Assembly (NCBI RefSeq): GCF_046093005.1
Contig: NZ_JBJTER010000089.1
Span: 9,816 to 73,815 of the forward strand
Reading direction: 5' to 3'
Length of the DNA stretch: 64,000 bases
Origin: Aestuariivirga sp.
Lineage (GTDB): Bacteria > Pseudomonadota > Alphaproteobacteria > Rhizobiales > Aestuariivirgaceae
Position 1 is the first letter of the stretch. Every line of letters begins with the position of its first letter. Of this stretch, positions 10,346 through 54,118 are shown piece by piece. Made by a program: the position numbers and the translations under genes. Under the pieces are notes generated by a model, which saw only the letters and a list, made by a program, of their open reading frames with translations, was not told the DNA's origin and made no database searches.

Positions 10346-11494
10346 ATGGCTCTTTCGCGCCGCAAAACCCTGGCTCTGGTCGGCGGAGGCGTCATCGTCG
10401 CGGCGGCGGGCGCCACCGCCTATACGGTGACCCGCCAGCCGGAAACCGCGCTCAACCCCTGGAAGACCGCCGGCAGCCAGGATGAGATTCGGCGCAAGGC
10501 CCTGTCTTTCGCGCTGCTGGCGCCCAACCCGCACAACCGCCAGCCGTGGCTCGTCGATCTCGCAGGCGAGGATCAGGTGGTGCTCTATGCCGATCTGCAG
10601 CGGCTTCTGCCGGAGACCGACCCCTACAGCCGGCAGATCACCCTGGGGCTTGGGGGCTTCCTGGAGCTCATGCGCATGGCCGCCGCGCAGGACGGCTACC
10701 GGGTCGAACTCTCGCTGTTTCCGGAGGGCGAAAACCCCGCGGCGCTCGATCAGCGGCCGGTTGCCCGCGCTGTCTTCCGCGCCGATCCGGGCGTTCAGCC
10801 AGACCCGCTGTTCGCCCATGTCCTCGCCCGCCGGTCTCTGAAGGAGCCCTATGACACGGCGCGGCCGGTGCCGGCCGATGTGCTCCCGGTTATCGCCGCC
10901 AGCGTCAATTCCGGCTCGCGGTTCGGCGGCTCCGTGGCGCAGGATGACATCGGCCAGTTCCGCGGCCTCACCCGCGAGGCGCTGCGCATCGAACTCGAGA
11001 CGCCGCGCACCTACAAGGAAAGTGTGGATGTGTTCCGCATCGGCCGCCGCGAGGTCGACGCCAATCCGGACGGCATCGACTTCACCGGCCCGCTTTTCGA
11101 AACGCTCCGGCTGTTTGGCCTGTTCACGCGCGCGCAGGCGCTCGACCCGGCGTCGTCCGCCTACCAGGCGGGCGTTGAGGCCGTGTTTGCCAACGCCGAC
11201 ACCGCCATGGGCCATGTCTGGCTGGTCACCGCGGCCAATACGAGGCGGGATCAGATCGCCGCCGGGGCGGACTGGCTGCGCGTCAACCTCGCCCTCACCG
11301 GCGCCGGAGTCGGCACCCAGCCGCTGAGCCAGGCCTTGCAGGAATATCCCGAGATGGCCGCACTCTACGCCGATATCCACAAGCGGCTGGCGCCCGGCGG
11401 CGGAACGGTTCAGATGTTCGCGCGGATCGGCTATGGTCCGGCGGCGGAGCCCAGTCCGCGCTGGCCGCTGGAAAAGAAGATTGTCGAAACCTGA
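10346..11494 (+). CDS. Acg-family FMN-binding nitroreductase-like protein with N-terminal Tat-like/TM segment
   Basis: LAPNPHNRQPW, LPETDPYSRQITLGLG, QPLSQALQEY; N-terminal SRRKTL followed by a hydrophobic stretch. Confidence 0.75.
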   Translation: MALSRRKTLALVGGGVIVAAAGATAYTVTRQPETALNPWKTAGSQDEIRRKALSFALLAPNPHNRQPWLVDLAGEDQVVLYADLQRLLPETDPYSRQITLGLGGFLELMRMAAAQDGYRVELSLFPEGENPAALDQRPVARAVFRADPGVQPDPLFAHVLARRSLKEPYDTARPVPADVLPVIAASVNSGSRFGGSVAQDDIGQFRGLTREALRIELETPRTYKESVDVFRIGRREVDANPDGIDFTGPLFETLRLFGLFTRAQALDPASSAYQAGVEAVFANADTAMGHVWLVTAANTRRDQIAAGADWLRVNLALTGAGVGTQPLSQALQEYPEMAALYADIHKRLAPGGGTVQMFARIGYGPAAEPSPRWPLEKKIVET

Positions 11495-11936
11495 CGACGC
11501 CACCAGGCTGATTTTCGCGTTCTTCAACGAAATCGCCATCATCAGCCAGCTGTCCGGCAGGATGCTGGAAGAGGCGTTGCCCGGCGGATTTCTCGCCTCG
11601 CATTTCGGGGTTCTCAACCACCTCGTCCGGCTGGGCGATGGCCGCACGCCGCTGGCGATCGCCCGGGCCTTTCAGGTGCCCAAGACCACGATGACCCACA
11701 CGCTGGCGGGGCTTGAGAAGGCCGGGCTCATCAGCCTCGCGCCCAACCCCGCCGACGGACGCTCAAAATGCGTCAAGCTCACCCCGGAAGGCCGCCGTTT
11801 CCACGATGCGGCGATTATGCGGCTGCAGCCTCAGCTCCAAACGATCGCGGAACGCTTTCCGCCCGGGAACATCGCCGCCATGCTGCCCATGCTCTCGGAC
11901 ATCCGCGCCTACCTCGACAAGCTGCGAGACCGGTAG
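11481..11936 (+). CDS. MarR-family transcriptional regulator
   Basis: wHTH with KTTMTHTLAGLEKAGLI and NPADGRSKCVKLT; probable TTG start overlapping the upstream gene. Confidence 0.85.
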   Translation: MSKPDDATRLIFAFFNEIAIISQLSGRMLEEALPGGFLASHFGVLNHLVRLGDGRTPLAIARAFQVPKTTMTHTLAGLEKAGLISLAPNPADGRSKCVKLTPEGRRFHDAAIMRLQPQLQTIAERFPPGNIAAMLPMLSDIRAYLDKLRDR

Positions 11937-13228: not shown

Positions 13229-13846
13229 TCAGAACTCGACCCCCGCCTGCGCCTTGACGCCGTCGCGGAACGGATGCTTCACCTGTTCCATCTCGGTGAC
13301 GAGATCGGCGATCTCGATCAGCTCGTCCTTGGCGTTGCGTCCGGTGACGATCACATGCTTGTCCGCGGGCTTGTCGCGCAACACCTCCAGCACCTCGCCG
13401 AGCGGCAGATAGTCATAGCGCAGCACGATGTTGAGTTCATCGAGCAGCACCATGCGGCAGGCGGGATCGGCGATCATGCGCCTGGCTTCCTCCCAGGCGG
13501 CGCGGGCATGCGCGATGTCGCGTTCACGGTCCTGGGTTTCCCAGGTGAAGCCCTCGCCCATTGCTTTCACCGTTACCAGATCGGGGAACTTCTCCAGCAC
13601 CGTGCGCTCGCCGGTGGCCCAGGCGCCTTTCACGAACTGCACGACACCGCAGCGCATGCCATGGCCGATGGCCCGGAAAATCATGCCGAAGGCGGCGGTG
13701 GATTTCCCCTTGCCCTTGCCGGTGTGAACGATCAGCAGGCCTTTCTCGATGGTCTTGCCGGCCATGATCTTGTCGCGCACGGCCTTCTTCTTCACCATCT
13801 TCTCGTGGTGGCGGGCATTGTCATGGCCCGGCTTTTCCTCGGTCAT
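13229..13846 (-). CDS. cobO: Cob(I)yrinic acid a,c-diamide adenosyltransferase
   Basis: HTGKGKGKSTAAFG, QFVKG, GEGFTWETQ, LDELN, TGRNA, QAGVEF. Confidence 0.96.
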   Translation of the reverse strand: MTEEKPGHDNARHHEKMVKKKAVRDKIMAGKTIEKGLLIVHTGKGKGKSTAAFGMIFRAIGHGMRCGVVQFVKGAWATGERTVLEKFPDLVTVKAMGEGFTWETQDRERDIAHARAAWEEARRMIADPACRMVLLDELNIVLRYDYLPLGEVLEVLRDKPADKHVIVTGRNAKDELIEIADLVTEMEQVKHPFRDGVKAQAGVEF

Positions 13847-16800
13847 TTGGTAAGCTCCTCCAGCACATCATGCGCGGAATTAAGCCGCGGCGTCCATAGC
13901 CCGCGGGCGGCGGCCTCCGCCAGGCGCTGGGCAATCTCCTTGAGCGCCGCCGGATTGTTGTCCGCGATGAAGCGGCGGGTGCCGGCATCGGCGATGAAGG
14001 CGTCATAGGCGAGATCGAAATGATGCGAGCGCACCGCGCCGGTTGTCGCCGCGAAAGCAAACATGTAGTCCACCGTGGCGGCGATCTCGAAGGCCCCCTT
14101 GTAGCCGTGGCGCTTCACGCCATCGATCCATTTGGGATTGACCACGCGGGACCGCATCACCCGGCTCACCTCCTCCTCGAGCGTGCGGATCACCGGGCGC
14201 TCGGGCCGCGAATGATCATTATGGTAGACGCGCGGGCGGGTGCCGGATGCCTGTTCCACCGCCGCCGTCATGCCGCCCTCGAACTGATAGTAGTCATCCG
14301 AATCGAGCAGATCGTGTTCGCGGTTATCCTGGTTGTGGACCACCGCCTCGATCCGCTTGAGGCGCGAGAGGAAGGCGTCTTCGTCGCGCACGCCTTGTGC
14401 GCCCGCGCCATAGGCATAGGCGCCCCAGGTGACATAGGCGGCGGCGAGATCGGCGCGGCTAGTCCATATCTTCTCATCGATCAGCGCCTGCAGGCCAGCT
14501 CCATAGGCGCCCGGTCTGGATCCGAAGATGCGATGGCCGGCCATCCGCCGGGCCTCGGCGTCGCCGATCCCCGCCCTTGCCAGTGCGCGCGCTTCCGCCG
14601 CCATGCGCTGAGCCAGCGGGTTGTCGTCTTCATCCTCCTCGAGCGCTCCCACCGCGCGGATCGCCTTGTCGAGGAGTTCGATCTGGGCGGGGAAGGCGTC
14701 GCGGAAGAAGCCGGAGATGCGCAAGGTCACATCGACGCGCGGCCGCCCCAGCCTGGCGAGCGGCAGGATCTCGAAGCCGGTCACCCGCCAGCTCGCTGTG
14801 TCCCACACCGGTTTGGCGCCGATCAGGGCGAGCGCCTGGGCAATGTCGTCGCCGCCGGTGCGCATGTTGGAGGTGCCCCAGGCGGAAAGCCCCAGCGCCT
14901 TGGGATAGCGCCCGAAATCCTGGAGATGGCGGAGCAGCAGCTCCTCGGCGGATTTGCGCCCGAGCGTCCAGGCGGCGGGCGTGGGCAGGGTGCGGTTGTC
15001 AAGCGAATAGAAGTTCCGCCCGGTCGGCAGCACGTCGAGACGGCCCCGGGTGGGGGCACCCGATGGCCCCGGCCGCACGAAACGCCCCGCAAGACCTCCC
15101 AGAAGTGCGGCGATTTCACATGGTCCCGAAGCGCGCAGCAGCGGCCGCACATGGCTGTCGATGCGGGCGAGCACCCTGGCGGTTGCGTTCATGCCGGGCG
15201 GCAAGGCGAGGCCCTCCAGCAAAGCCGCCGCATAAAGCTCAAGCCGCTCCACGGTATCGCCGTTGCTGCGCCAGGCTTCGGCCGAGATGTCAGCCAGTGC
15301 CAGTGGACGCGGGCCTGCCCAGGCCGCGGCGGGCGCGCAGCTCAGGGGGTCGAAGCCGGTCAATCCGAAATCGATCGTCAGCGCCCGGGTGAGCGATTGA
15401 TCGCCGTCTTCGCCAAGCCCGCGCGGCACGCGGGTGAGCGCCACGAGAAGATCGGTTTCGAGCCGGCCTTGCGGTGCGGCTCCCAGCACGTGAAGCCCAT
15501 CGCGGATTTGTGCTTCCTTGAGATCGCAGAGAAACGCATCAAGCCGCTGCAAATCCTGCTCTTCGTCACCGGTGAACCCAGCGTCCGCATCAAGCCTTGT
15601 TGAAGCGGTGAGCGCCAGGATATCGCGGCGCAGTGCCGCGCGCCGCCGCGGGTCGAGGCCGGACGCGAGGTAGTACTCGTCAACGAGGGCTTCGAGATCC
15701 TTGAGCGGGCCATAGGTCTCGGCGCGCGTGAGCGGCGGCGTCAGATGGCTGATGATCACCGCCGCGGTGCGCCGCTTGGCCTGGGTGCCTTCGCCCGGAT
15801 CATTGATGATGAACGGGTAAAGCTGCGGCACCGGCCCGAGAATGGCTTCCGGCAGGCAGTCCGCCGAAAGCGCGGTCGCCTTGCCCGGCAGCCATTCGAG
15901 ATTGCCATGCTTGCCATTGTGGATCACCGCATGGGCGCCGAACACGTGCCGCACCCAGATGTAGAAGGCGAGATAGCCATGCGGCGGCGGCAGGGCAGGG
16001 TCATGGTAGCTGGATTTGGGATCGATGTTGTAGCCGCGCGCCGGCTGGATCGCCACCGCGGCATTGCCATGGCGGATCACCGGCAGGCGGAAGCCGCCGC
16101 CGGCGAAGAACGGGTCATCAGCGGGATCGCCCCAGCGGCCAGTGATCCGTTCACGGACGGTCTCCGGCAATGCCGCGAAATGCCGGAGGTAATCGGCCAG
16201 CGAAAGCGTTTCTCCATTCACGCAAGCCGTCTTTGGCGCGGCGTTGGTCGGGCCCCGCTGCAGGGCGGCGATCAAGGCGTTGCCGGTCTCGGGGATGTTG
16301 GTGATCGCATAGCCTTCACCGAGCAGGGCGGCGAGGATCGCCACCGTGCTGGCCGGCGTGTCATAGCCCACGCCATTGGCGATGCGGCCATCCTTGTTGG
16401 GATAGTTGGCGAGGATCACCGCCACTTTCCGCCCTTGCGGCGGCGTGCGCCGGAGCCTGATCCAGCTGGCCGCGAGATCGGCCACGAAGGCCACGCGGTC
16501 CTCAACCGGGCGGTAGGTGAGGATCGGGCACTCCGTCCCGGCGTGCCACTGGTCCTCCGCCTTGAAGGAGATGGCGCGTGACAGAATTCTGCCGTCCAGT
16601 TCCGGCAGCACCACATTCATCGCGAGGTCGCGGGCCTCGAGGCCTTGCGGGCTGGCGCGCCACCGGGCTTCGGAGCTTCCCGCCAGCACCACTTGCAGCA
16701 CCGGGCAATCATAGGCCGCCAGCGGATCGTCGGCGCCGCCCGCCGCCACCGCGAAACTGGTGGCATTCAGGATGATGTCCGGCGGCCGCCCGGAAAGCCC

Positions 16801-17511
16801 GCCACCGATTGCCGCAATACTCGCCGCGTCCTTGAGGCTGGCGACATAGAAAGCGCGTGTTGCAATGCCGCGCGCGGCAAGCTCATCGATCAGCGCGTCG
16901 ATGGGGGCTGTCTGGCCGCCGTCGATCGCCGAGCGGTAGAAGATGATCGCCGCCAGCGGCTGGCCCGCCGCGCCGGTTTCGCGGTAGAGCCCGGCGGGGG
17001 CGGGGGGGATGGCGGGTGCCGGCTCTTCACCCCGCTCCGTCAGATGCCTGCAATAGGCAAGAAAGCCATCGGCGTTGGCGGCGCCGCCGGCCACCAGATA
17101 CTGCCGCAGCCGCTCGCAGTGATGGGCGGGCAGGCTTGAGCGGCGCGTGAGGTCCGGGTCCGGCTGGGCATCTCCCGGCAGGACCGCCAGCAGGATTCCC
17201 CTGGTCTCGGCCAGCGCCTCCAGTTGTTCCAGCCCATAGCTCCAGTAGGACGCGCCACCCAGCAGCCGCAGCACGATCAGCCTGGCATGCGCCAGCGTCT
17301 TCCCGGCGTAAACATCGACCGACAGCGGATGCTGCAGCCGCAACAGGCTGGCGAGGCGCAGGGAACAGGGGTTCCGGTCATGGGCGCGGGCGAGGCTTGC
17401 GAGTTCGCTGTCGGCGGCCGACAGCACGATGATATCGGCCGGCCGCTGCGCGAGGTCGACGGCCTCGGCACTGCCGTCGATCACACCGCTGGTTGAGGCG
17501 AGGAGGTGCAT
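13843..17511 (-). CDS. cobN: Cobaltochelatase large subunit
   Basis: MHLLA start, GKHGNLEWLPGK, NDPGEGTQAKRR, PTGRNFY, NPKWIDGVKRHGYKGA. Confidence 0.96.
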   Translation of the reverse strand: MHLLASTSGVIDGSAEAVDLAQRPADIIVLSAADSELASLARAHDRNPCSLRLASLLRLQHPLSVDVYAGKTLAHARLIVLRLLGGASYWSYGLEQLEALAETRGILLAVLPGDAQPDPDLTRRSSLPAHHCERLRQYLVAGGAANADGFLAYCRHLTERGEEPAPAIPPAPAGLYRETGAAGQPLAAIIFYRSAIDGGQTAPIDALIDELAARGIATRAFYVASLKDAASIAAIGGGLSGRPPDIILNATSFAVAAGGADDPLAAYDCPVLQVVLAGSSEARWRASPQGLEARDLAMNVVLPELDGRILSRAISFKAEDQWHAGTECPILTYRPVEDRVAFVADLAASWIRLRRTPPQGRKVAVILANYPNKDGRIANGVGYDTPASTVAILAALLGEGYAITNIPETGNALIAALQRGPTNAAPKTACVNGETLSLADYLRHFAALPETVRERITGRWGDPADDPFFAGGGFRLPVIRHGNAAVAIQPARGYNIDPKSSYHDPALPPPHGYLAFYIWVRHVFGAHAVIHNGKHGNLEWLPGKATALSADCLPEAILGPVPQLYPFIINDPGEGTQAKRRTAAVIISHLTPPLTRAETYGPLKDLEALVDEYYLASGLDPRRRAALRRDILALTASTRLDADAGFTGDEEQDLQRLDAFLCDLKEAQIRDGLHVLGAAPQGRLETDLLVALTRVPRGLGEDGDQSLTRALTIDFGLTGFDPLSCAPAAAWAGPRPLALADISAEAWRSNGDTVERLELYAAALLEGLALPPGMNATARVLARIDSHVRPLLRASGPCEIAALLGGLAGRFVRPGPSGAPTRGRLDVLPTGRNFYSLDNRTLPTPAAWTLGRKSAEELLLRHLQDFGRYPKALGLSAWGTSNMRTGGDDIAQALALIGAKPVWDTASWRVTGFEILPLARLGRPRVDVTLRISGFFRDAFPAQIELLDKAIRAVGALEEDEDDNPLAQRMAAEARALARAGIGDAEARRMAGHRIFGSRPGAYGAGLQALIDEKIWTSRADLAAAYVTWGAYAYGAGAQGVRDEDAFLSRLKRIEAVVHNQDNREHDLLDSDDYYQFEGGMTAAVEQASGTRPRVYHNDHSRPERPVIRTLEEEVSRVMRSRVVNPKWIDGVKRHGYKGAFEIAATVDYMFAFAATTGAVRSHHFDLAYDAFIADAGTRRFIADNNPAALKEIAQRLAEAAARGLWTPRLNSAHDVLEELTK

Positions 17512-18542
17512 CAGCCTCGCAGCAGCTGGGTGATGGCGGCGCGGTCCATGTGCTTCTCGCCGATCACCACGAGGGCCGTGCCGCGCGGCTCGTCCTGGCG
17601 CCATGGCCGGTCGAAATAGCTGTCGAGCCGCGGGCCCACCGCCTGCACCAGCAGCCGCGCCGGCGCGCCCGCGATTTCGGCGAAGCCCTTGAGGCGCAGG
17701 ACGCCGTGGCTGGCGATGGCGTTTCCGATGCGGTTCAGCAGCGCTGCCTTATCGCCTTGCGGGCCGAGCGCCACCACGAAGCTCACGAAATCATCATGGT
17801 CATGCTGTTCCTCGCCTTCCATCTCATGGTGCGAGAGGCGGTTCGCCATATCGTCTTCCGCCGCCGCCCCGGCGCCCAGCAGTGCTGCCACGCTCACCGC
17901 GCCGTGCCGCGCGGCGATCATCCCGGTGCCCGCCCGCAGCTTCTGCTTCAGCGCGGCGGTAACGGCGTCCTGTTCGCCGGCCGCGAGAAGGTCGGTCTTG
18001 TTGACGATCACCAGGTCAGCGCAATTGAGCTGATCCTCGAACAGTTCCTCGATCGGGTTTTCATGGTCGAGCGTCGGGTCGGCCAGGCGCTGTGCCGCCA
18101 GCGCTTCTTCATCATCCGCGAAACGGCCCTCGGCCAGCGCCTTGGCATCGACAACGGTGATCACCCCATCGACGGTGACGCGCGGCTTGATCTCCGGCCA
18201 GTTGAAGGCCCGCACCAGAGGCTGGGGCAGGGCGAGGCCGGAGGTTTCGATCACGATGTGCTGCGGCGGGTCCGGCCGGTCGATCAGCTTCTTCATGGTC
18301 GGAATGAAATCATCGGCCACGGTGCAGCAGATGCAGCCATTGGCGAGTTCGATCACATCCTCCTCGCGGCAGGCTTCGGCGCCGCAGCCCTTCAGGATTT
18401 CGCCATCGACCCCGACATCGCCGAACTCGTTGACGATGAGAGCGATGCGCCGCCCGCCGGCATTGGCCAGCAGGTTGCGGATCAGCGTGGTCTTGCCGGC
18501 GCCGAGGAAGCCGGTGATGACGGTGGCGGGAATCTTCTGCAT
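17511..18542 (-). CDS. cobW: Cobalamin biosynthesis GTPase CobW
   Basis: MQKIPATVITGFLGAGKTT, NGCICCTVADDF, ETSGLALP. Confidence 0.94.
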   Translation of the reverse strand: MQKIPATVITGFLGAGKTTLIRNLLANAGGRRIALIVNEFGDVGVDGEILKGCGAEACREEDVIELANGCICCTVADDFIPTMKKLIDRPDPPQHIVIETSGLALPQPLVRAFNWPEIKPRVTVDGVITVVDAKALAEGRFADDEEALAAQRLADPTLDHENPIEELFEDQLNCADLVIVNKTDLLAAGEQDAVTAALKQKLRAGTGMIAARHGAVSVAALLGAGAAAEDDMANRLSHHEMEGEEQHDHDDFVSFVVALGPQGDKAALLNRIGNAIASHGVLRLKGFAEIAGAPARLLVQAVGPRLDSYFDRPWRQDEPRGTALVVIGEKHMDRAAITQLLRG

Positions 18543-18544
18543 GG

Positions 18545-19237
18545 TCAGCTTTCGTAAATGTCCCTGGCGGTGAGCGTGAGGGCCACGGCGAGGAACTGGC
18601 CGATCAGCAGCCAGAACACCGCATTGGCGGCGATGGTGTTGGCGGCGAAGCGCGCCGCGAGTTCGGCCGGCACCGTGCTTTCGGCATGGATGCCCGATGG
18701 CGCGCCCAGCGCATGCGGAAGGGCGATCAGTGCCAGCGCCAGCGCCACGGCCCAGGCCTGGCGGCGGCTCACGAGCAGAAAGATGCCTGCCGCCGTCAGG
18801 GCCACGGTGCTCACCCACCATAGCTGCTGCAGCCAAAGATCGCCCGCCGCCATGCCAGGAAGCACCGGAGGGAGGCCGGCTGCCGGGGCAATGGTGACGG
18901 CCAGAAATCCGCACAGGCCCCAGACCATGCCGTTCCGCCGGGTGATGGCGATGCCGGACAGCAGCGAAATTCCCGCCAGCACGGCGGCAAAGGCGGCGCC
19001 GGTCATGACGGTGGTGAGGGTGGTTGCGAGGCTTCGCTGCCAGCCATCGGCGGGGCGCCAGCCGTCATGCTCATGCGCCCCGCCGTTGCCATGGTCATGC
19101 GTGGCCACGGATTGCCGCGCCTCGAAGCCTTCGGCTTTAAGGATGAGGGGCGTCAGCCGCACATGCAGGATGGCACCCATGATAAGCCCGGCCGCCATCC
19201 CCGCAAGGAGTGCGGCGAGCACCACGCGCCCGATCAT
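18545..19237 (-). CDS. cbtA: Cobalt transporter subunit CbtA
   Basis: TM helices, His-rich loop (HDHGNGGAHEHD), GLPPVLPG, PHALGAP; lies downstream of cbtB. Confidence 0.85.
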   Translation of the reverse strand: MIGRVVLAALLAGMAAGLIMGAILHVRLTPLILKAEGFEARQSVATHDHGNGGAHEHDGWRPADGWQRSLATTLTTVMTGAAFAAVLAGISLLSGIAITRRNGMVWGLCGFLAVTIAPAAGLPPVLPGMAAGDLWLQQLWWVSTVALTAAGIFLLVSRRQAWAVALALALIALPHALGAPSGIHAESTVPAELAARFAANTIAANAVFWLLIGQFLAVALTLTARDIYES

Positions 19238-21154: not shown

Positions 21155-21784
21155 ATGTTTCACATTCCTGACTTCCAGCGTTTGATGGGATCGCCCCCCG
21201 ATGCCACCTCAACAGCGCCTGAAGGGGCAGGCCCCGGCCTGCCCGCCGATTGGAGCGCGGTCGCGGCCTTTGTCGAGGCTGCGCACGCGCAACTGGCGCA
21301 TGATCTGATCGGACGCATTCATGTGCAGCCGCCGTCGTTCTTCGAACGTCTGGTGATCGATGTGCTGTTGGCCATGGGCTATGGCAGCGGCCGGCCGGCC
21401 ATGGCGCGCTGTCTTGGGCGCTCCTGGGATGGCGGCATCGACGGTATGATCCTGCTCGACGAGTTGGGCTTTGATTCAATCTTCGTCCAGGCCAAGCGCC
21501 TGAAACCGGGCGTGGCGGTGCCGGTGTCGGACGTGCGCGATTTCGCGGGCAGCCTTGAGGCCTGCCGCGCCAGCAAGGGCGTGCTGGTGGCCACCACGCA
21601 TTTCACGTCCAGCGCGCAGGCTTTTTGCTCCAGCATCTCCCGTCACATCGTCCTCATTGACGGCGCGCGGCTGGTGCAGCTGATGATTCGCCATAACATC
21701 GGCGTCGCGGTGCGCGGCAGCTTCCTGCTGAAGGAGCTCGACAACGGCTACTTCAGGCAAGCGGCGGAGCGCCGGGCGGAGTAG
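21155..21784 (+). CDS. mrr: Mrr-family restriction endonuclease, catalytic domain only
   Basis: FFERLVIDVLLAMGYG, DGGIDG, VQAKR, VRDFAGSL, LIDG; about 100 aa shorter than E. coli-type Mrr. Confidence 0.82.
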   Translation: MFHIPDFQRLMGSPPDATSTAPEGAGPGLPADWSAVAAFVEAAHAQLAHDLIGRIHVQPPSFFERLVIDVLLAMGYGSGRPAMARCLGRSWDGGIDGMILLDELGFDSIFVQAKRLKPGVAVPVSDVRDFAGSLEACRASKGVLVATTHFTSSAQAFCSSISRHIVLIDGARLVQLMIRHNIGVAVRGSFLLKELDNGYFRQAAERRAE

Positions 21785-22434: not shown

Positions 22435-23022
22435 CTACCAGCGCATCGGACGGAAGGACTTCAGCGTCGGCATGCCGATCATCGAGGACAGGGGCGCGGC
22501 ATTCTTGCTGAGCAGCCCCATGCCGATGAGGGAGGAGAGCGGCGCGGCATTCTCACTCAGCAGCGGCATGCCGATAACCCTGGAGGCGCTCCAATCGGCT
22601 GACGTCAGCGGTGAGAACCCGATGATCTTGGAGATGGGCGTGGCATCATCGGACAGCAAGGGCATCATCAGCGCGCTTGATAGCGGCGCGGCTTCATCCC
22701 ACAGGGTTTCCGGCGCGGGCTCCGGCATGCCGGTTGGGATGGGGTGGTGGGAGTCGAGAATCTGTTCCGCCGCCAGTCCTGTGCCGAAAGGCGCGAACAC
22801 CGTCACCAGCGAACCGCCCGCCGCAACGCCCTTGGCGTAAATACGGGCGTCCGCCAGAAGCACCCGGTTCTGGGCGATCTGCGCGGCAATGGCCGAGAGC
22901 GGCGTATCACCGGCGGGCGGAGACACCACATGAACGTCCGTGAAGCCCTCCTCGCGCAGTTCGGCGGCGGCCTTGTGAGCGGAGTCCTGGCTGGAATACA
23001 TCCGGTTGATTTCAGTGGTCAT
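22435..23022 (-). CDS. Putative LH2-associated PucDE/gamma-like protein with ~16-aa repeats
   Basis: Lies immediately after pucC; C-terminal repeats (A-x-PLS-x2-IGM-x-LLS). Resemblance to R. capsulatus PucDE is from memory only. Confidence 0.5.
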   Translation of the reverse strand: MTTEINRMYSSQDSAHKAAAELREEGFTDVHVVSPPAGDTPLSAIAAQIAQNRVLLADARIYAKGVAAGGSLVTVFAPFGTGLAAEQILDSHHPIPTGMPEPAPETLWDEAAPLSSALMMPLLSDDATPISKIIGFSPLTSADWSASRVIGMPLLSENAAPLSSLIGMGLLSKNAAPLSSMIGMPTLKSFRPMRW

Positions 23023-30528: not shown

Positions 30529-32061
30529 TCATGTTCCCACCGCCTCTTCGGCCTTGGCGCGCGCCGCCAGCATGCCGGCATATTTCTTGCGGAACTCGGG
30601 GCGGTCGACCGGCGTATCTTCCCAGATGCCCGCCGCATGGCCTTCGCCCACGCCGGCGAAGAATTCGGTCATCGTATCGAAGCGGTGCTTGTTGGCCAAC
30701 GCCGCGTTGATCACCTGGGCGAGCGATCCGGCCCCCGCCGGGCCCATCAGCGGCCGCGCCGAGATCAGATTGGTGAAATAGAGCGACGGGATCGAAAGCT
30801 GCTTGGCTTTCTGCACCACCGGCGTGGTGCCGATCGCCAGATCGGGCCTTGCGTCAATCATCGCCGCGATGTCGTTCTCGAGCGAGGCGCGGAACTGCAC
30901 GGTGACGCCGCGCGCCTCCAGCCAGGCACGGTCGGCATCCGACCAGCGGGTGCGCGGGCAGGCGCTGCCGACATAGGGAACCTCAGCGCCGCTTTCGATC
31001 AGCAGCCGCGCCACCAGAAGCTCCGAGCCCTCGTAGCCAGAAACCGTGATGCGGCCCTTGATCGGCTTTGCCGCAAGAGCGCCCCTGATGGCGGGCAGGA
31101 TCGCATTCTGTGCCGCGGCGATCTTCTCGGCGCCGACATTGCAGGCCTGGCCGATGGCGGCGAGCCAGTCGGCCGTGCCGTCATGGCCCACCGGGGCGGA
31201 ACCAACGACGCTGCGTCCCGCCGCCTCGAATTCGCGCACCGCGGATGTGTAGAAGGGATGGATCGCCGCCACCGCGGCGCAATCGAAGGCGGCGAACAGC
31301 TCGCGCCATTCCCGCGTCGGCACCACCGGCCCGGCGGCAAGCCCCATCGGCTCCAGCATGCGGCCGATGCCGACCGGATCGGCGGGGACCATTTCGCCCA
31401 GCAGCGTGACCGCGGGACGCGCGCTGCGCGAGGTGCGCGGCGCGGCCACCGGACCCTGGCGGATTTCGGAGGCGGCATATTTCAGCATCGCGCCGGCGAG
31501 CACGTCCTTCGCTTCGGCATGGGTCGGCACGCCAAAGCCCGGCACGTCGATGCCGATGATGCGAACCCCGTTGATCTCCTTGGGCAGAAGTTGCAGCGGC
31601 ACGCCAGAGGCCGTCGGCACGCACAGATTGGTAATGACGATCGCGTCATAATCCTCGGGCTTCGCCAGCTTGTAGACGGCCTCGCGGATGTCCTCGAACA
31701 GCTTGCCGGTCACCAGCGTCTCGGAATTGAACGGCACATAGCCGACCGAGCGCCGCGCGCCGTAGAAGTGCGAGGTGAAGGTGAGGCCGTAGACGCAGCA
31801 GGCCGAGCCGGAAAGGATCGTCGCGGTGCGGCGCATGCGCAGTCCCACCCGCAGCGAGCCGAAGGCCGGGCACATGCTTTGCGGCTGGTCATGCGGGCCC
31901 AGCGGATAGTCCCTGGCGTATTGTTCCAGCGCTTCGGACTTGCCGGCGGCGCGCGCCGCCTTGTTGAGTTCATCCTTGCCCGCATGGCAGGACAGACCGG
32001 AGACATCCGCCTTTGGCGCCTCCGTCACGGGCCCGTTCCTGTCGATGAGGGTGGTGGCCAT
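30529..32061 (-). CDS. bchY: Chlorophyllide a reductase subunit Y
   Basis: [28 protein letters not shown] Fe-S ligands. Confidence 0.96.
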
Positions 32062-32065
32062 TGTC

Positions 32066-33064
32066 TTAAACCGTGTCGTAGATCACTTCGAGGGAAGGCT
32101 TGGCGGTGATGGTGCCCCCGCACATGTCCTCGGCGGACGCGGGCACCAGCACGACGTTGCGGCCCACCGTGTCGCCCTTGAACAGGCCAAGCAGGCCGTC
32201 CTGGTCGAGCGGCGAGGGGCGCTGCGGCGGGGCTTCCGCCACGTTGACGGCGAGGCCGGCGAACAGCGCGCCCCACTCGCTTTCGGGCTTGCCGATGATC
32301 TCGTAATTGGCGCTCTTGCGGCGAATGTCCTCATGGGCGGGGATCGAGGCCAGCACCGGAATGCCAACGGCCTCGGCGAAAGCCGCCGCCTCGCCGGTGC
32401 CGTCGTCCTTGTTGATGACGATGCCGGCCACGCCCACATTGCCGCCGAGCTTGCGGAAATATTCCACCGCCGAGCAGACATTGTTGGCCACATAAAGCGA
32501 CTGCAAGTCGTTGGAGCCGACGATGATCACCTTCTGGCACATGTCGCGGGCGATCGGCAGGCCGAAGCCGCCGCACACCACGTCGCCGAGGAAGTCGAGC
32601 AGCACATAATCGAAGCCCCATTCATGGAAGCCCAGCTTCTCCAGAAGCTCGAAGCCGTGGATGATGCCGCGCCCGCCGCAGCCGCGGCCCACTTCCGGGC
32701 CGCCCAGCTCCATGGCGAAGACGCCGTCGCGCTTGAAGCACACATCGCCGATCTTCACCTCTTCGCCGGCCAGCTTCTTCTTGGCCGAGGTCTCGATGAT
32801 GGTGGGGCAGGCCTTGCCGCCGAACAGCAGCGAGGTGGTGTCGCTTTTCGGGTCGCAGCCGATCAGCAGCACGCGCTTTCCCTGCTGCGCCATCATGTAG
32901 GAGAGGTTGGCGAGCGTGAAGCTCTTGCCGATGCCGCCCTTGCCGTAAATGGCGATGATCTGCGTTTCTTTCTTCACCGGTCCGGTGTGCACGGGGTCGG
33001 GAGGCTGGTTGGCCTCCTCGCGCAGCTTGGCGTCACGGACCAGTGTCAGGTCGATGCTGTTCAT
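32066..33064 (-). CDS. bchX: Chlorophyllide a reductase iron protein X
   Basis: YGKGGIGKS P-loop, GRGCGGRG, DVVCGGF (NifH-like). Confidence 0.97.
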   Translation of the reverse strand: MNSIDLTLVRDAKLREEANQPPDPVHTGPVKKETQIIAIYGKGGIGKSFTLANLSYMMAQQGKRVLLIGCDPKSDTTSLLFGGKACPTIIETSAKKKLAGEEVKIGDVCFKRDGVFAMELGGPEVGRGCGGRGIIHGFELLEKLGFHEWGFDYVLLDFLGDVVCGGFGLPIARDMCQKVIIVGSNDLQSLYVANNVCSAVEYFRKLGGNVGVAGIVINKDDGTGEAAAFAEAVGIPVLASIPAHEDIRRKSANYEIIGKPESEWGALFAGLAVNVAEAPPQRPSPLDQDGLLGLFKGDTVGRNVVLVPASAEDMCGGTITAKPSLEVIYDTV

Positions 33065-33996
33065 GAGAACGCGCTCCAGTCGAGGGCCATCTTGATGCAG
33101 GAAGGATCGTTGAATGCCTGGGCATAGGCCGCTTCCGCGCCGGCGGCGGCGGCGCGGTGCGTGATGAGTCCCGCCAGGCTCAAGCGGCCGGCGGTGACCA
33201 GCGAGCGCACCGATTCGATGTCGGCTTTGGTGAATTCGGCGGCGATCCTGATTCGCGCCTCGCGCATGAAGGCGGGCGGAAAGGCGAAGCTCAGCGGTTC
33301 CTCGTAGAAACCGGCAAGCGTGATCTCGCCGCGCCTGGCGAGCCGCGGCATGAGCGTATCGAGAAGGCCGGCGGCGCCGCTGGCATCGCAGATCGTTTCG
33401 TAGTCGCGCCGCTGGTCCTGTTCCGGAGCGATCACCGCATAGCCCGTTGCGCCGTCGCGGCGGCCTGCCTGCTTCTCCCAGACGGTGGGGGCATCGCCAC
33501 CCAGAGCGAGCGTGATGCGGGCGATCAGCCGGCCGAGAATGCCGTGGCCCACGATCAGCTGCGGCAATCTCGTATCAGGCGCGGCGACGGCATGGTGAGC
33601 CGTTGCCGCAAGAGCCATCAGAATGCCGGTATCGTCAGCGATGCCGTCGAGCGGCACGGCGCGTTGCGCCGGAACCACCAGGCGCGCCGCGGCGCCGCCG
33701 AACAGGCCGCGCAATCCGGCGAAGCAATTGGCGCCCGGCACGAATACCAGGTCGCCTTCCGCGAAACCATGGCCGCCGCGGCTCACCCGGCCAACCGTCT
33801 CGTAGCCGGGGACCAGCGGATAGCCCATGCCGGGAAAATCGGGCATGCGGCCAGCCCACAGCAGCCGTTCAGTGCCGGATGAAATTCCTGTCCAGGCCGC
33901 GTCGACGACGATGTCGCCGGCGGTTGCCTCCTGCAGTGTCACTGTTCTGAGCGCCAGTTTTCCCGGCTGTTCCAGAACGACCGCGACCGTATCCAT
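33061..33996 (-). CDS. bchC: 3-hydroxyethyl bacteriochlorophyllide a dehydrogenase
   Basis: GISSGTERLLW, FPGMGYPLVPGYE, FPPAFMREAR; first gene of bchCXYZ. Confidence 0.95.
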   Translation of the reverse strand: MDTVAVVLEQPGKLALRTVTLQEATAGDIVVDAAWTGISSGTERLLWAGRMPDFPGMGYPLVPGYETVGRVSRGGHGFAEGDLVFVPGANCFAGLRGLFGGAAARLVVPAQRAVPLDGIADDTGILMALAATAHHAVAAPDTRLPQLIVGHGILGRLIARITLALGGDAPTVWEKQAGRRDGATGYAVIAPEQDQRRDYETICDASGAAGLLDTLMPRLARRGEITLAGFYEEPLSFAFPPAFMREARIRIAAEFTKADIESVRSLVTAGRLSLAGLITHRAAAAGAEAAYAQAFNDPSCIKMALDWSAFS

Positions 33997-34057
33997 TCCC
34001 GGTCTCTCCTCTGGGGTCCGGCGGTGTTGTTGCGAGGCACAGCCAGAGACTCCAGAC

Positions 34058-34101
34058 TGTAAGCTTACTCTTACACATCAAAGTGTCAATAGGAGTGTAC
34101 A
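34058..34101. promoter_or_regulatory. Tandem PpsR/CrtJ palindromes at the bchC promoter
   Basis: TGTAAGCTTACTCTTACA (34058-75) and TGTCAATAGGAGTGTACA (34084-101); both are TGT-N12-ACA and 8 bp apart. Confidence 0.9.
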
Positions 34102-34262
34102 GTTCTGCCGTCTGGAAATGTGGACTGCGGGCCGTGGCGATTTGAGGCGAAGCAGATGCTCGTTAAAATTGAATTTAATGCTATTTGTTCTACCTGATGT
34201 AGCCCCAAGACCTGCGTCTCGCGCATGGCGTATGAAATGGTTTTCTGAGGAACAACCCGACG

Positions 34263-34343
34263 CATCCGCATGTCATGTTTGGTGCATCCGGACCGCATCC
34301 AAATGTCATCCAAACCGCATCGAAAAGCATCCAAACCGCATCC
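34263..34343. repeat. Helically phased degenerate 11-bp tandem repeat (consensus AAACCGCATCC)
   Basis: CAT cores at 34263, 34274, 34285, 34296, 34307, 34318, 34328 and 34339. Confidence 0.8.
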
Positions 34344-34348
34344 GAAAG

Positions 34349-35428
34349 CTACATGATTTTGAGCATGCTGCAGACCACCGGATTGCGGGTCCTGATCGCC
34401 GTGGTGGAGGTGAAGCCGGCGGCGGCGGCGAGGCGGCCAAGCTCGGCGGCGGTCCGGGTGCGGCCCTGGCCCATGGCGGCGAAATAGGTGCCGAAATAGG
34501 CATCGGCGATGGGCGCGGTGGCGGCGATGCCGGACAGCGGTTCGGCCACGATCAGCACCCCGCCGGGCGGCAGCATGTGTTTGATGGCGCTCAGGATTTT
34601 CAGCACCGAGTCGTCATCATGGTCATGCGCGACGCGGATCAGCGTGGCCACGTCGGCCCCCTTGGGAAGTTCATCGGTGAGAAAAGACCCAGGATGAATT
34701 TCCACGTCATTTCCGAGGTTTACGCGCGCAATCTCAGCCACCGCGGGAAGATCGAACAGGCTGAGCCTGAGCTGCGGATAGCGGCTCCGGGCGGCGGCCA
34801 GGAAGGTGCCGTTGCTGCCGCCCACGTCGATCAGCTGGCGGTGACGCCCGAAATCATAGGCGGCGAGGATCTCGGCCGCCACGGCCTGCTGCGAGGCCGC
34901 CATCAGCGCCGTGTAGGACGCCGCATGCGGGGTCGCGGAATAGTTCCAGAACTCCTTGAGTTTGTTGTCTTTTCTGTCGCCGGACAGAAGCGCCAGCGGG
35001 TCCGCCAAATCATCATAGAGCAGGTGGTGATGGGCGATGAACTTGGCGATCCACGGGTTGCCGGCCAGCGCTGCTCCATGCTGGCCGAGGGTGTAGGCGC
35101 CGGTGCTGGTCAGTTCCAGAATCTCCAATGAAACCGCAGCCTTGAGCAGTCTTTCGAGGCGGCCGGCGGGCCAGCCAACGCGGGCCGCCAGCGCGGGCCC
35201 GGTCAGTGCCGGGCCTTGCAGCATGTCGATCAGCCCCAGCTTCACCGTGGCATAGAGCACCTGCGAATAGGTGAAGCCCGCCAGCAGGTCGAAGAGGGCC
35301 CGGGAGCGCCGCCGGGCGATAGGCCTAAACGGCGGAAATTCAATGGCAAATTTCTGAAATCGCGGGCTTGCCAGCAGGCGGTTGCGGAAACCTCGCCAGC
35401 GGTCCGCGGCGGCTCCGGCGAGGCTCAT
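34349..35428 (-). CDS. crtF: Hydroxyneurosporene/demethylspheroidene O-methyltransferase
   Basis: RNRLLASPRFQ, LFDLLAGFTYSQVL, DVGGSNG SAM motif, RVAHDH, GQGRTR. Confidence 0.93.
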   Translation of the reverse strand: MSLAGAAADRWRGFRNRLLASPRFQKFAIEFPPFRPIARRRSRALFDLLAGFTYSQVLYATVKLGLIDMLQGPALTGPALAARVGWPAGRLERLLKAAVSLEILELTSTGAYTLGQHGAALAGNPWIAKFIAHHHLLYDDLADPLALLSGDRKDNKLKEFWNYSATPHAASYTALMAASQQAVAAEILAAYDFGRHRQLIDVGGSNGTFLAAARSRYPQLRLSLFDLPAVAEIARVNLGNDVEIHPGSFLTDELPKGADVATLIRVAHDHDDDSVLKILSAIKHMLPPGGVLIVAEPLSGIAATAPIADAYFGTYFAAMGQGRTRTAAELGRLAAAAGFTSTTAIRTRNPVVCSMLKIM

Positions 35429-35429
35429 G

Positions 35430-36302
35430 TCAGGCGGCGGCGGTGCGCGCCGAGAGGCCGGTCACGAGGCTGCGCGACACGCCGGTGATCTGCTTGCCGA
35501 GCTGTTCGGCGCCGGGGCAGGGCGGGATCGCCGCCATGGCCTCGGCCAGCAGCTCCTCGAAATGCGCCATGGCGCCGTCAAACCCAAGATTCAAAACGAA
35601 ATTCGGCCGCTGGTTGGCCTCGTCCTGGTTGACCGGCTTGCCCAGTTTCTCGGCCGATCCGGCGACATCGCGCAGGTCATCAGCCACCTGGAAAGCCTCG
35701 CCGATGGCAAAGCCCAGCCGCTGCCATGGCTGCGGCTCCAGCCCGGCGGAGGCGGCGCCCGCCATGGTGCAGGCGGCGAACAGGGCCCCGGTCTTGGCTC
35801 GCTGATAGCGAACAATATCAATGGTTTCCTCGCATTCCCAGGCCTGGCCAGCGCAAATCCCGGACGGGCCGCCGACACAGGAGGCGATGATCCGGGTAAG
35901 CGGCGCCAGCCGCTCCGGGGCGGCTGCCAGCCGCACCGCCAGCCATTCGAAGGCCAGCACGATCAGCGCATCGCCAGTGAGCACCGCGATCCGCTCGCCG
36001 AAGGCTGCATGCACCGATGGCTTGCCCCGCCGCAGTGCCGAATTGTCGAAGCAGGGCAGGTCGTCATGGACCAGCGAGGCGCAATGAAGAAGCTCGATCG
36101 AGGCTGCGGAAACCAATGATGCCATTGGGTTTTTTGTATCGCAGGCAGCGGCCACGGCGAGCGCCAGCCGGGGCCGGATGCGGGCTCCGCCGGGGAACAC
36201 CGCATCGCGCAGCGCAGCCGCCAGTTTCGGAGGACAATCGCCTGCGGCGGCCCGTGCCACTGCGAGGTCAAGTTCAGCTTCCAGGCGCTGTCCAACGTCC
36301 AT
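35430..36302 (-). CDS. crtE: Geranylgeranyl diphosphate synthase
   Basis: GGARIRP, HDDLPCFD, KTGALF, FQVADD; ATG at 36302. Confidence 0.95.
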   Translation of the reverse strand: MDVGQRLEAELDLAVARAAAGDCPPKLAAALRDAVFPGGARIRPRLALAVAAACDTKNPMASLVSAASIELLHCASLVHDDLPCFDNSALRRGKPSVHAAFGERIAVLTGDALIVLAFEWLAVRLAAAPERLAPLTRIIASCVGGPSGICAGQAWECEETIDIVRYQRAKTGALFAACTMAGAASAGLEPQPWQRLGFAIGEAFQVADDLRDVAGSAEKLGKPVNQDEANQRPNFVLNLGFDGAMAHFEELLAEAMAAIPPCPGAEQLGKQITGVSRSLVTGLSARTAAA

Positions 36303-36314
36303 GGCGATCCCCGC

Positions 36315-36357
36315 TGTCAACTCATAATGTCATTGCGACTGTCAGGAATTATTGACA
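36315..36357. promoter_or_regulatory. PpsR palindromes at the crtE/crtD divergent promoter
   Basis: TGTCAGGAATTATTGACA (36340-57, perfect) and TGTCAACTCATAATGTCA (36315-32, one mismatch). Confidence 0.8.
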
Positions 36358-40383: not shown

Positions 40384-40664
40384 TCCGGCATCCTCCTGTA
40401 GACTTCCAAAAGAAAATCCCTCATCAGCGCTTCCACCGAGGTGAAACTGTATGGTTTCTCATCGCCGTCCAGGTGGCGGTGATCACCTTTGCCGCGCTCG
40501 TTGTCAAAACCTACCAGTCTTTTGCCGTTCCGGCCGAAATAGAGGCGGTATTTGTAGGCATGGCGGCTTCCCGGTAGCGGTTTTGGAAGCTTCCAGATGA
40601 CCATTTCAACGATCGCTCCATCCGGCAAGACGCGCTTTTCCCGGTGAATGAGCTGCGCTGTCAT
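40380..40664 (-). CDS. DUF6516/TumE-family toxin
   Basis: EMVIWKLPKP, H-x-YKYRL, FDNERGKGDHRH, Y-x-F-x-S; 94 aa. Confidence 0.78.
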   Translation of the reverse strand: MTAQLIHREKRVLPDGAIVEMVIWKLPKPLPGSRHAYKYRLYFGRNGKRLVGFDNERGKGDHRHLDGDEKPYSFTSVEALMRDFLLEVYRRMPE

Positions 40665-40811: not shown

Positions 40812-40919
40812 TTACTTCCGCTTATCCCGCCTGAGCTTCCATAACTCCCAGAAGCCGAAGCCCAGGACCAGGCCCAGGACGAGGAGCATTTCCGCGAAAA
40901 TGAGCGAATCCGGGCTCAT
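40812..40919 (-). CDS. 35-aa single-TM peptide translationally coupled to crtB
   Basis: MSPDSLIFAEMLLVLGLVLGFGFWELWKLRRDKRK*; its ATG overlaps the crtB TGA (ATGA). Confidence 0.65.
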   Translation of the reverse strand: MSPDSLIFAEMLLVLGLVLGFGFWELWKLRRDKRK

Positions 40920-41944
40920 GAGCGCTGCTTTTCCAGCCTGGTGAACAGTTCGGTGAGCCATTGCGCGCGTTCGTCCAGGGTGCGCGGCGGGCGCTGCGGA
41001 TCGCCGGCGCGCGAGACCGCATCGACCAGGAACTGCGCCTGCGGCAGGGCAGGCGTGCCGCAGGGCGGCGTGCGCGCCGCCGCGGTGGCGATGGCGCCGC
41101 CCAGCAGGGCGAGTTTTCGCAGCGTCGGCACCACGGCGCGGCGGCCTACGCTGTCGCCGCCATTGCGCTCCACCTCGCGGCCGATGCCGGCATAAAGCAG
41201 CCGCGCGGCGTTGATGGACGGCCGGCAGCCCATGGGCAGCATGGCGATGCCCGCGAGGCTCCGCGCATAAAGCACATCCGCTTCGGCCAGCAGCTGGCCC
41301 ACCACGCGGGCAAGCGCGGGCGAGTGGCGCGGCGCCGCGACAAAGCCATCGGCATCCACACCCGCGTTCGCCAGCCAGTCGAGCGGCAGGTAGACGCGGC
41401 CGTTGCGCGCATCCTCGCCCACATCCCGCGCGATGTTGGTGAGTTGCATGGCAATGCCAAGGTCGCAGGCCCGGGCAATGGCCTCAGGCGCGCGCACCTG
41501 CATGACCAGCGACATCATCGCGCCAACCGTGCCGGCCACGCGCACGGCATAGGCGTGCAGCTCGCCAAGGTTTGGATAGCGGCGGCCGCTGGCGTCCCAG
41601 GCGAAGCCTTCGATGAGGGCTTCCGGAATCTCGCGCGGGATCGCGAAGCGCGCCGCCACGTCGGCAAAGGCGCGGTCGGCGGGGTCATCGCCCGGCGCGC
41701 CGCGGTAGATGCGGTCAAGCCGCTCAAGCAGCGTGTCCACCGCGGCGCGGCTGTCCGGCGTGCGGTCAACAAGGTCATCGGCCACGCGGCAAAAGGCATA
41801 GAGCGAGCGCGAGGCATCGCACACCCGCTGCGGCAGCAGCAGCGAGGCGGTGTAGAAGGTTTTGGAGCCATCGCGGATCATCTGGCGGCACTGCGCCAGA
41901 TCGGCGGGGCTCACCAGGGAACGGTCAGGCGAATGCTGCAGCAT
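40916..41944 (-). CDS. crtB: Phytoene synthase
   Basis: GSKTFY, LYAFCRVADDLVD, RVAGTVG, QLTNIARDVGED, GRVYLP. Confidence 0.95.
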   Translation of the reverse strand: MLQHSPDRSLVSPADLAQCRQMIRDGSKTFYTASLLLPQRVCDASRSLYAFCRVADDLVDRTPDSRAAVDTLLERLDRIYRGAPGDDPADRAFADVAARFAIPREIPEALIEGFAWDASGRRYPNLGELHAYAVRVAGTVGAMMSLVMQVRAPEAIARACDLGIAMQLTNIARDVGEDARNGRVYLPLDWLANAGVDADGFVAAPRHSPALARVVGQLLAEADVLYARSLAGIAMLPMGCRPSINAARLLYAGIGREVERNGGDSVGRRAVVPTLRKLALLGGAIATAAARTPPCGTPALPQAQFLVDAVSRAGDPQRPPRTLDERAQWLTELFTRLEKQRS

Positions 41945-53573: not shown

Positions 53574-53660
53574 TTACTTCTTCTTGGCGGCCTTCTTCTT
53601 GGCCGGCTTCTTAGCGGCCTTCTTCTTGGCCGGCTTCTTCGCAGCTTTCTTCGCAGCCAT
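53574..53660 (-). CDS. 28-aa Lys/Ala-rich basic peptide (histone H1-tail-like)
   Basis: MAAKKAAKKPAKKKAAKKPAKKKAAKKK*, AGGAG RBS, own terminator. Confidence 0.72.
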   Translation of the reverse strand: MAAKKAAKKPAKKKAAKKPAKKKAAKKK

Positions 53661-54118
53661 CGCTGTCTCTCCTAGAGTTGTTAGTGCCCCACAACGCAGG
53701 TAAGCCTCACACGGACGAACAGCCTGGCGTGAAGGAACCGAGTCTCATTCGTCGTTGTCACGTTATGTGCACCCGCTTGCGTGATTCGGCAATATGCCGA
53801 ACCCCATTCAGGACTATCGCGGATTCACGCTAACAATCGGTAAACGCTGGGAAAACCGGCCAGACCGTCCTTGCACGGACAAACTGGCCGCTGGCGCGGA
53901 AAAAATCAATAAAAACGGGGGTTTCAGAAGTTATTCCGTGGACGGATGAACGCTGGTTTTGAGGGGGCTCTGGCGGCAAAACCTGTCAAGAGGCGGGCGC
54001 GCCCTTCACAAGAAGCTGTGGATATTTTTTTCGATTGAAGCGGCGCCGAGGCCCTGAAATGCGCGAAGGCCGGCGCATGACCGGCCTCCGTTTGTTGTCA
54101 CAACAAGGCGTCCGGGCG

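Follow-up and report, generated by a model that had tools for sequence, protein, structure and literature searches.

An 11-bp repeat array of predicted curvature between crtF and the bchC promoter in Aestuariivirga-like freshwater bacteria

Results

The crtF-bchC gap

The window, by which we mean the whole 64-kb stretch of Aestuariivirga sp. DNA that was analysed, carries a photosynthesis gene cluster in which crtF and bchC are separated by a gap of 352 bp that has 51% GC, compared with 66% GC in the window. The genes and features on which the analysis turns are the following:

30529-32061, minus strand: bchY, photosynthesis cluster
32066-33064, minus strand: bchX, photosynthesis cluster
33061-33996, minus strand: bchC, first gene of bchCXYZ (TIGR01202, 418 bits)
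34058-34101, minus strand: bchC promoter region, two TGT-N12-ACA (PpsR/CrtJ-type) palindromes 8 bp apart
34102-34261, no strand: unconserved spacer from array to promoter, with an AT-rich patch at about 34150-34200
34262-34284, minus strand: degenerate, promoter-proximal end of the array, containing the block ATGCACCAAACATGACATGC as well as a seventh GGATGC (34267-34262)
34285-34348, minus strand: regular part of the array, six 10-11-bp units (T-rich 5 nt followed by GGATGC), one with CGATGC and one with GGATGA
34349-35428, minus strand: crtF, O-methyltransferase, TAG stop at 34351-34349
35430-36320, minus strand: crtE, adjoining crtF

The homologues of crtF carry the source name demethylspheroidene O-methyltransferase. 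The minus strand is the strand of every gene around the array, and it is the strand on which the repeat units are read below unless stated otherwise.

The promoter region is kept in all relatives. Its two palindromes, 34084-34101 (upstream) and 34058-34075, are spaced exactly as in the bchC promoter of R. capsulatus, where they occupy -30 to -47 and -4 to -21 (PMC5362033), and a -35-like hexamer, TTGACA (34081-34086), lies within the upstream one. By analogy, we infer a bchC transcription start near 34054, which would place the array at about -208 to -294. The earlier note on this DNA, made from the sequence alone, had put the array about 160 bp upstream of the PpsR pair and had described an AT-rich patch between the two; the distance is 162 bp and the patch is present. 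The spacer as a whole is not alignable between lineages and is hypervariable between strains. A weak sigma70-like consensus match on the plus strand (34142-34169, TTGAGG-16-TAAAAT), aimed at the array and antisense to crtF, falls in this unconserved DNA.

Among the window ORFs scanned, the sole regulator-type ORF is a MarR-type one (11433-11936), far from the photosynthesis cluster, and there is no ppsR, ppaA, regA, mucR or response-regulator gene; the bchC palindromes are therefore probably read by a PpsR encoded elsewhere. One metatranscriptome run reaches bchC up to position 34024 and covers neither the gap nor crtF, and in four lake metatranscriptome runs with puf-like words the coverage consists of a conserved bchX motif only. 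As crtF is uncovered too, metatranscriptome silence over the gap is uninformative.

An 11-bp array directly behind crtF

The array spans 34262-34348, contains seven to eight units, and sets in 5 nt past the crtF stop in the direction of transcription. In order, the regular units read CTTTC-GGATGC, GGTTT-GGATGC, TTTTC-GATGC, GGTTT-GGATGA, CATTT-GGATGC and GGTCC-GGATGC, with the seventh GGATGC 16 nt further on. The block ATGCACCAAACATGACATGC (34262-34283), which contains TGTCAT on the plus strand, is kept as ATGCACCGAAAATGACATG in the relative whose CrtF is 91% identical and is absent from other lineages. When the positions of the CAT cores were recounted on the plus strand (34263, 34274, 34285, 34296, 34307, 34318, 34328 and 34339), their spacings were exactly the 11, 11, 11, 11, 11, 10 and 11 bp that had been claimed. 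Seven of the eight cores read CATC and six read CATCC, a word expected about 0.1 times per 81 bp; that at 34274 reads only CATG. The plus strand of the regular part (34285-34348) is composed of 23 A, 23 C, 10 G and 8 T.

Several measures agree on the period. TRF reports a period-11 array at 34284-34343 (5.5 copies) as well as periods of 21 and 22, and a repeat search of the array returned four copies in register. Autocorrelation of the 86-bp array is 0.52 at lag 11 and 0.56 at lag 22, and the lag-11 value was matched, at any lag from 3 to 35, by 5 of 5000 dinucleotide-preserving shuffles, so that the periodicity noted earlier is significant against shuffled sequence of the same composition. 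The array ranks first among all 86-bp windows of the 64 kb for lag 10/11, and its regular 66-bp stretch has a lag-11 autocorrelation of 0.60, reached by none of 200 shuffles (lags 5-15, all gap positions). No second phased motif pair occurs elsewhere in the 64 kb, where there are two loose matches at 41426 and 52780. A MITE or other dispersed repeat was rejected, since the array is single-copy in the window and in the 127 loci fetched, and the extra DNA of the gap has no terminal inverted repeats.

The earlier note placed all cores on one face of the helix. The period is indeed on the helical scale, but the one-sidedness is only approximate, because an 11-bp period drifts by about 17 degrees per repeat on 10.5-bp B-DNA. 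It also took the array to explain the unusual length of the gap. Gaps that lack an array are only 117-122 bp long, which speaks for this in part; of the roughly 235 extra bp, however, 86 bp are array and about 160 bp are unconserved spacer.

Arrays at the same site in diverged relatives

The window derives from an uncultured lineage of freshwater bacteria, and an exact-protein look-up of its BchC returned no record. Among species representatives, the nearest are Aestuariivirga-like MAGs whose BchC is 75-78% identical. Comparison of crtF-bchC gaps among relatives, a check that the earlier note had proposed, revealed same-site arrays in diverged relatives as well as short gaps with no array. In the following list, a significant lag-11 array is one whose autocorrelation was reached by none of 200 shuffles over lags 5-15 and all positions; the percentages are CrtF identities.

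Window: 100%, gap 352 bp, significant lag-11 array
L114/L115/L097: 91%, gap 342 bp, significant lag-11 array
L116: 89%, gap 330 bp, three units, GTTGAC-ATTTT
L118: 75%, gap 378 bp, significant lag-11 array of GGATGC-TTTTT units after a REP-like palindromic insert
L120 (4.4-Mb Aestuariivirga contig): 73%, gap 374 bp, significant lag-11 array, GGAGC plus T3-4
L121, L122/L123, L126/L127: 72-73%, long gap, weak remnants only
L001, L002, L119, L124/L125, P0012: 72-76%, gap 117-122 bp, array absent

By the same test, the window, L114, L118 and L120 all have their best lag at 11. The array is specific to this Aestuariivirga-like freshwater clade (CrtF at least 72% identical), and none of 80 more distant GTDB bchC loci has a comparable one; a short contig from metagenome X5 carries another array variant beside the end of crtF. 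Across lineages the arrays occupy the same site, right after crtF, in the same orientation, and those of L114, L118 and L120 share a G>C skew of the sense strand. They lie about 90 to 190 bp from the promoter, depending on the lineage. At loci without an array, 15-30 bp separate the crtF stop from the upstream palindrome.

The units themselves differ by lineage (GGATGC, GGWKGC, GGATGC+T5, GGAGC+T3-4), and those of L114/L115/L097 read CATTTTT-GTTGG, GTTTT-GGATGA, CATTT-GGTTGC and CATTT-GGAGGC. When the gap of the window was aligned with those of the relatives with 91% and 75% CrtF identity, only the promoter block and the array aligned, and the alignment of the relatives' gaps contained no conserved small ORF. 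The feature that is kept in the array lineages is the 11-bp register of T-runs and G-rich core, and not a fixed word. On the CrtF tree the long spacer with an array is found on both sides of the clade root, for which the most economical history would be a single origin followed by two deletions and some decay.

The insert in L118 (2590-2730) is a GC-rich REP-like palindrome, CCCCCTCGCCCCCACAGGGGGAGAGGG..., between the crtF stop and the array; it also occurs in L117 (2587-2619), and a CCCC/GGGG-rich stretch like it is present in the gaps of L121 and L122.

Predicted curvature of the array

Curvature was predicted with a dinucleotide wedge model, in which control A5N5 repeats bent by about 20 degrees per tract, as expected. 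The segment 34292-34354 has a predicted bend of ~75 degrees, compared with 18 +/- 10 degrees for the window, and ranks first among the 63-bp segments of the 64 kb; 3 of 1000 composition-preserving shuffles of the array matched it. With the same model, the arrays of L114, L118 and L120 have predicted bends of 68, 81 and 107 degrees, in each case the top of their own locus, and that of L116, at 61 degrees, is tied for the top of its own. The next most curved segments of the window (40498-40560, 40879-40941 and 53865-53927, with 65-68 predicted degrees) are not repeat arrays; the first two sit in a lower-GC stretch beside the end of crtB.

A parameter-free measure points the same way: the AA/TT Fourier amplitude at periods of 10-11.5 bp has z = 5.7-7.1 over the array, which places it in the top 0.02-0.1% of the window's positions. 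If AT dinucleotides are counted as well, the array ranks only in the top 0.3-2.5%; the AT step within GGATGC is out of phase with the T-runs. These runs are short in the window (3-4 nt), and their starts are spaced by 12, 9, 12 and 11, with similar values in L114 and L120. The array has the layout of phased A-tracts, at least four A/T-runs of at least 3 bp that lack TpA and lie about one helical turn apart, and it contains no TpA step at all.

Discussion

A candidate bent platform

The array is probably a DNA-shape or protein-docking element, a clade-specific case of a phased curved-DNA or direct-repeat platform, and not a new kind of system. The earlier note had read it in general terms as a cooperative binding array or a bent-DNA element, a reading that fits the periodicity, the predicted curvature and the same-site arrays in relatives; the note did not recognise it as a described element, and we found no description in the literature of such an element in photosynthesis gene clusters. 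An 11-bp period has been tied to the pitch of negatively supercoiled DNA (PMC4132750), and it is this match to the helical repeat of bacterial DNA, for which a role in RNA or coding would have no need, that argues for a role at the DNA level.

The reading that we favour, tentatively and with a little less than even confidence, is that the array forms an intrinsically bent platform, phased with the helix, on which an oligomerising DNA-binding protein would dock; this protein would modulate bchC or insulate it from crtEF. A bent, one-sided docking surface is preferred because predicted curvature is found again in lineages with different units. The T-runs and the G-rich core (GGATGC), returning every 11 bp, would present the same helix face in each unit and sum their small bends, so that about 85 bp of DNA immediately after crtF would be intrinsically curved. 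A platform of this kind could recruit or wrap an oligomerising protein, for which a MucR/Ros-type nucleoid protein, a Fis-like regulator of the RegA/PrrA type or an unrecognised head-to-tail binder are candidates, and may thereby tune the PpsR-controlled bchC promoter at a distance or separate it from transcription arriving via crtEF. What the data show is the periodicity, the predicted curvature and the recurrence in relatives; actual bending, protein binding and any effect on bchC are inferred.

Several observations stand against such a platform. Two groups within the clade have no array (L001 and P0012/L002/L124/L119) and L121, L122 and L126 have only remnants; the core differs across lineages (GTTGAC in L116, GGAGC in L120); the array is far from the promoter, 208-294 bp upstream of the proposed start; within the 64 kb the motif pair is single and no gene for a candidate binder is present among the ORFs scanned; and the curvature comes from a model, with short T-runs in the window and a lower rank when AT dinucleotides are counted. 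Moreover, an inherited 11-bp unit length would persist by slippage even if there were no selection for it.

Three described systems resemble the favoured platform. The first is the general ~11-bp A/T periodicity of bacterial genomes (PMC4132750) and, with plc of Clostridium perfringens among that paper's references as an example, phased A/T-tract curved DNA upstream of bacterial promoters; here, too, short T-runs recur every 10-11 bp without TpA. Like curved promoter DNA, the array extends over six to eight turns, has a sigma70-type promoter downstream and strong predicted curvature, with a period of 11 rather than 10.5 bp; it differs from UP-element-like A-tracts in lying much further upstream and in the well-kept GGATGC of each unit. 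The binding peaks of alpha-proteobacterial MucR1 have a 10-11-bp periodicity of T/TT, and bridging by MucR1 is independent of A-tracts (PMC9410896). The array agrees with the description of MucR/Ros targets as AT-rich DNA with periodic T-runs (49% AT, compared with 34% in the window, and 11-bp periodic T-runs), and the host falls within the same order-level group (Hyphomicrobiales); it differs from these targets in having no TpA steps and in being only moderately AT-rich. Finally, R. sphaeroides PrrA binds upstream of bchCXYZ and crtEF with no clear consensus, and a contribution of DNA curvature to recognition has been proposed (PMC4263372). The promoter neighbourhood is the same; the gap, however, has no GCG-type inverted repeat, and a counterpart of the array in Rhodobacter is not known.

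A possible nearly neutral repeat

The most serious rival to the platform is a nearly neutral minisatellite, in which an ancestral 11-bp unit in a dispensable spacer is expanded, contracted and homogenised by slippage, so that the period and the T/G-rich composition would be inherited and the predicted curvature a by-product. The array together with its spacer was deleted twice and has decayed in L121, L122 and L126, the window and L114 have different copy numbers, and two units look recently duplicated as a block of 21-22 bp. The lineage-specific unit sequences also suit this account. It is repeated loss and decay in sister lineages, together with the lack of another copy or a partner site in the 64 kb, that keep it a serious rival.

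The population data bear on slippage directly. Contigs from six metagenome runs cover all or most of the array and contain no insertion or deletion in it, and thus no copy-number polymorphism among strains; the only two substitutions, at 34266 and 34277, are both in the degenerate end. In a contig of X7 that is otherwise ~99% identical to the window, there are ~18 substitutions and a 1-bp shift at 34109-34213, and none in the 225 bp of 34214-34438; X14 has several substitutions in the same AT-rich patch. The array is thus no fast-slipping contingency locus, and it is better preserved than the spacer beside it. The hypervariability of 34109-34213 could be due to a recombined patch or to relaxed constraint, and a recombined patch could give the same picture in X7.

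Three further observations do not sit well with a neutral repeat. Inside the array, the 5-nt spacers vary more than the GGATGC core does, a difference that is not expected from simple recent duplication. Arrays have persisted or been renewed at one site over 25-28% CrtF divergence, with the adjoining spacer randomised. The degenerate arrays of L114 and L120 have held their 11-bp register despite many substitutions. On balance we regard neutrality as possible but unlikely. Were it correct, the locus would be a clean case of a minisatellite that has stayed at one site through deep divergence.

A possible dedicated operator and other regulator sites

A quite doubtful variant of a DNA-level role is that the array is the dedicated operator of an unrecognised regulator that binds GGATGC-N5 head-to-tail, such as a winged-helix response regulator or a ribbon-helix-helix protein. 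Operators of the OmpR/PhoB family, among them Pho boxes and ArcA sites, consist of multiple direct repeats with a centre-to-centre spacing of 11 bp. The array shares with them a head-to-tail core of 6-7 bp, the direct repeats at 10-11-bp spacing and a variable number of units, and two of its units read TGTCAT on the plus strand, which resembles the core of a Pho box; it differs in lying off the -35 region, and no response-regulator gene accompanies it among the ORFs scanned. If such an operator existed, bacteriochlorophyll and puf expression would receive an input beyond PpsR (for example nutrient or light) in an abundant genus of freshwater phototrophs, and in each lineage the core sequence and the protein would evolve together.

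Scans of the array found no PpsR, FNR, PhaR-like, RegA-like, IHF, Pho-box, alpha-proteobacterial LexA or CtrA consensus; a pattern scan for DNA sites returned one DnaA-like 9-mer with two mismatches. Individual candidates were rejected on the following grounds. A PpsR/CrtJ operator would require TGT-N12-ACA, of which the gap has only the two promoter palindromes. A Pho box, with the consensus CTGTCAT-N4-CTGTCAT, would have a pair TGTCA-N5-6-TGTCA, which the array lacks, and would be found at or beside -35. The RegA/PrrA pattern GCGNC-N4-6-GNCGC is absent from the gap, and this consensus is itself weak (PMC4263372).

RNA-level readings

The array could alternatively act in RNA, in the 3' untranslated region of crtF or between the cistrons. 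Its G/U-rich, unstructured repeats (UUUGGAUGC) would then be sites where RNase E enters or cleaves, or where an RNA-binding protein attaches, and the stabilities of the crtEF and bchCXYZ-puf mRNAs would be uncoupled. In favour of such an element are the proximity to the crtF stop, with one orientation in all lineages, and the GGUUU/GCUUU-type stretch in each unit, which resembles the RNase E preference. For the sense RNA, no structure is predicted. Transcription that continues from crtEF into bchC as a superoperon is known in Rhodobacter (PMC5362033). On the other hand, a fixed 11-nt period has no rationale in RNA recognition, GGA is not kept (L116 has GUUGAC), and in L118 a 140-bp element parts the array from crtF. 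The only Rfam match in 33500-35000, with E values of up to 10 allowed, was a chance snoRNA hit, predicted folding did not beat shuffles on either strand (z = -0.96 for the sense strand and -0.04 for the plus strand), and 33900-34500 contains no intrinsic terminator. We consider an RNA element improbable. A CsrA/Rsm-type sponge RNA, which would display many GGA motifs in hairpin loops of a dedicated transcript, was rejected: the array does contain GGA motifs, but it has no significant fold, Rfam match or terminator, and L116 units lack GGA.

Yet more improbable is a rut-like Rho loading site for antisense transcripts of the plus strand, which would halt transcription born in the spacer before it entered crtF. 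YC dimers spaced regularly over six to eight units are the layout expected for the six subunits of Rho. The plus strand is A/C-rich and G-poor and offers a YC dimer (CAUCC) every 11 nt over six to eight units, its RNA is unstructured by fold prediction, the sigma70-like match at 34142-34169 points into the array, and the sense-strand G>C skew extends to L114, L118 and L120. Against this, the promoter match is weak and in an unconserved, hypervariable patch, the argument draws on general properties of rut sites, and it leaves unexplained how the array-less relatives manage.

To the two specific suggestions of the earlier note, operators of a TGC-binding regulator such as PhaR/AniA and iterons or a centromere left over from a former replicon, we give almost no credence: tandem direct repeats of 11 and 22 bp that might be coated cooperatively do formally resemble iterons and ParR/parC centromeres, and each unit contains TGC, but the TGC-N3-GCA-type palindrome of PhaR/AniA has its only match in the gap at 34031, in the bchC leader and outside the array, and crtF and bchC flank the array in every lineage, in a chromosomal photosynthesis gene cluster (on the 4.4-Mb contig in L120), with neither rep nor par genes among the ORFs scanned and no further copies of the array in the window or the 127 loci.

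Implications for pigment control

Aestuariivirga-like bacteria are at the core of freshwater aerobic anoxygenic phototroph communities (PMC10976687). If the favoured platform, or another DNA-level role, is correct, a lineage-specific phased element near a PpsR-controlled bchC promoter would provide a testable handle on an extra layer of control, one that could run via DNA shape, a nucleoid protein or an unrecognised regulator, and for which the array-less relatives are natural comparison constructs. To our knowledge, the control of pigment synthesis in such phototrophs is known almost only from Rhodobacter.

Other features of the window

Cobalamin-related genes lie beside the photosynthesis cluster (13229-19237 and 21155-21784), including a cobO-type adenosyltransferase and cbtA together with an ORF of 1253 aa, and an ORF for an Mrr-like restriction endonuclease is found at the edge of the cluster. 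Also at this edge, adjoining pucC, is an ORF on the minus strand (22435-23022) that has no Pfam match and contains a 48-bp tandem repeat of 2.2 copies (22471-22575, TRF score 140). A second tandem repeat reported by TRF, with a period of 27 bp, coincides with a tiny ORF on the minus strand (53574-53660), which is preceded by GGAGAG, a sequence resembling a ribosome site, and followed by a hairpin and a T-run. Its 28-aa product, MAAKKAAKKPAKKKAAKKPAKKKAAKKK, could be a very basic, histone-H1-like peptide.
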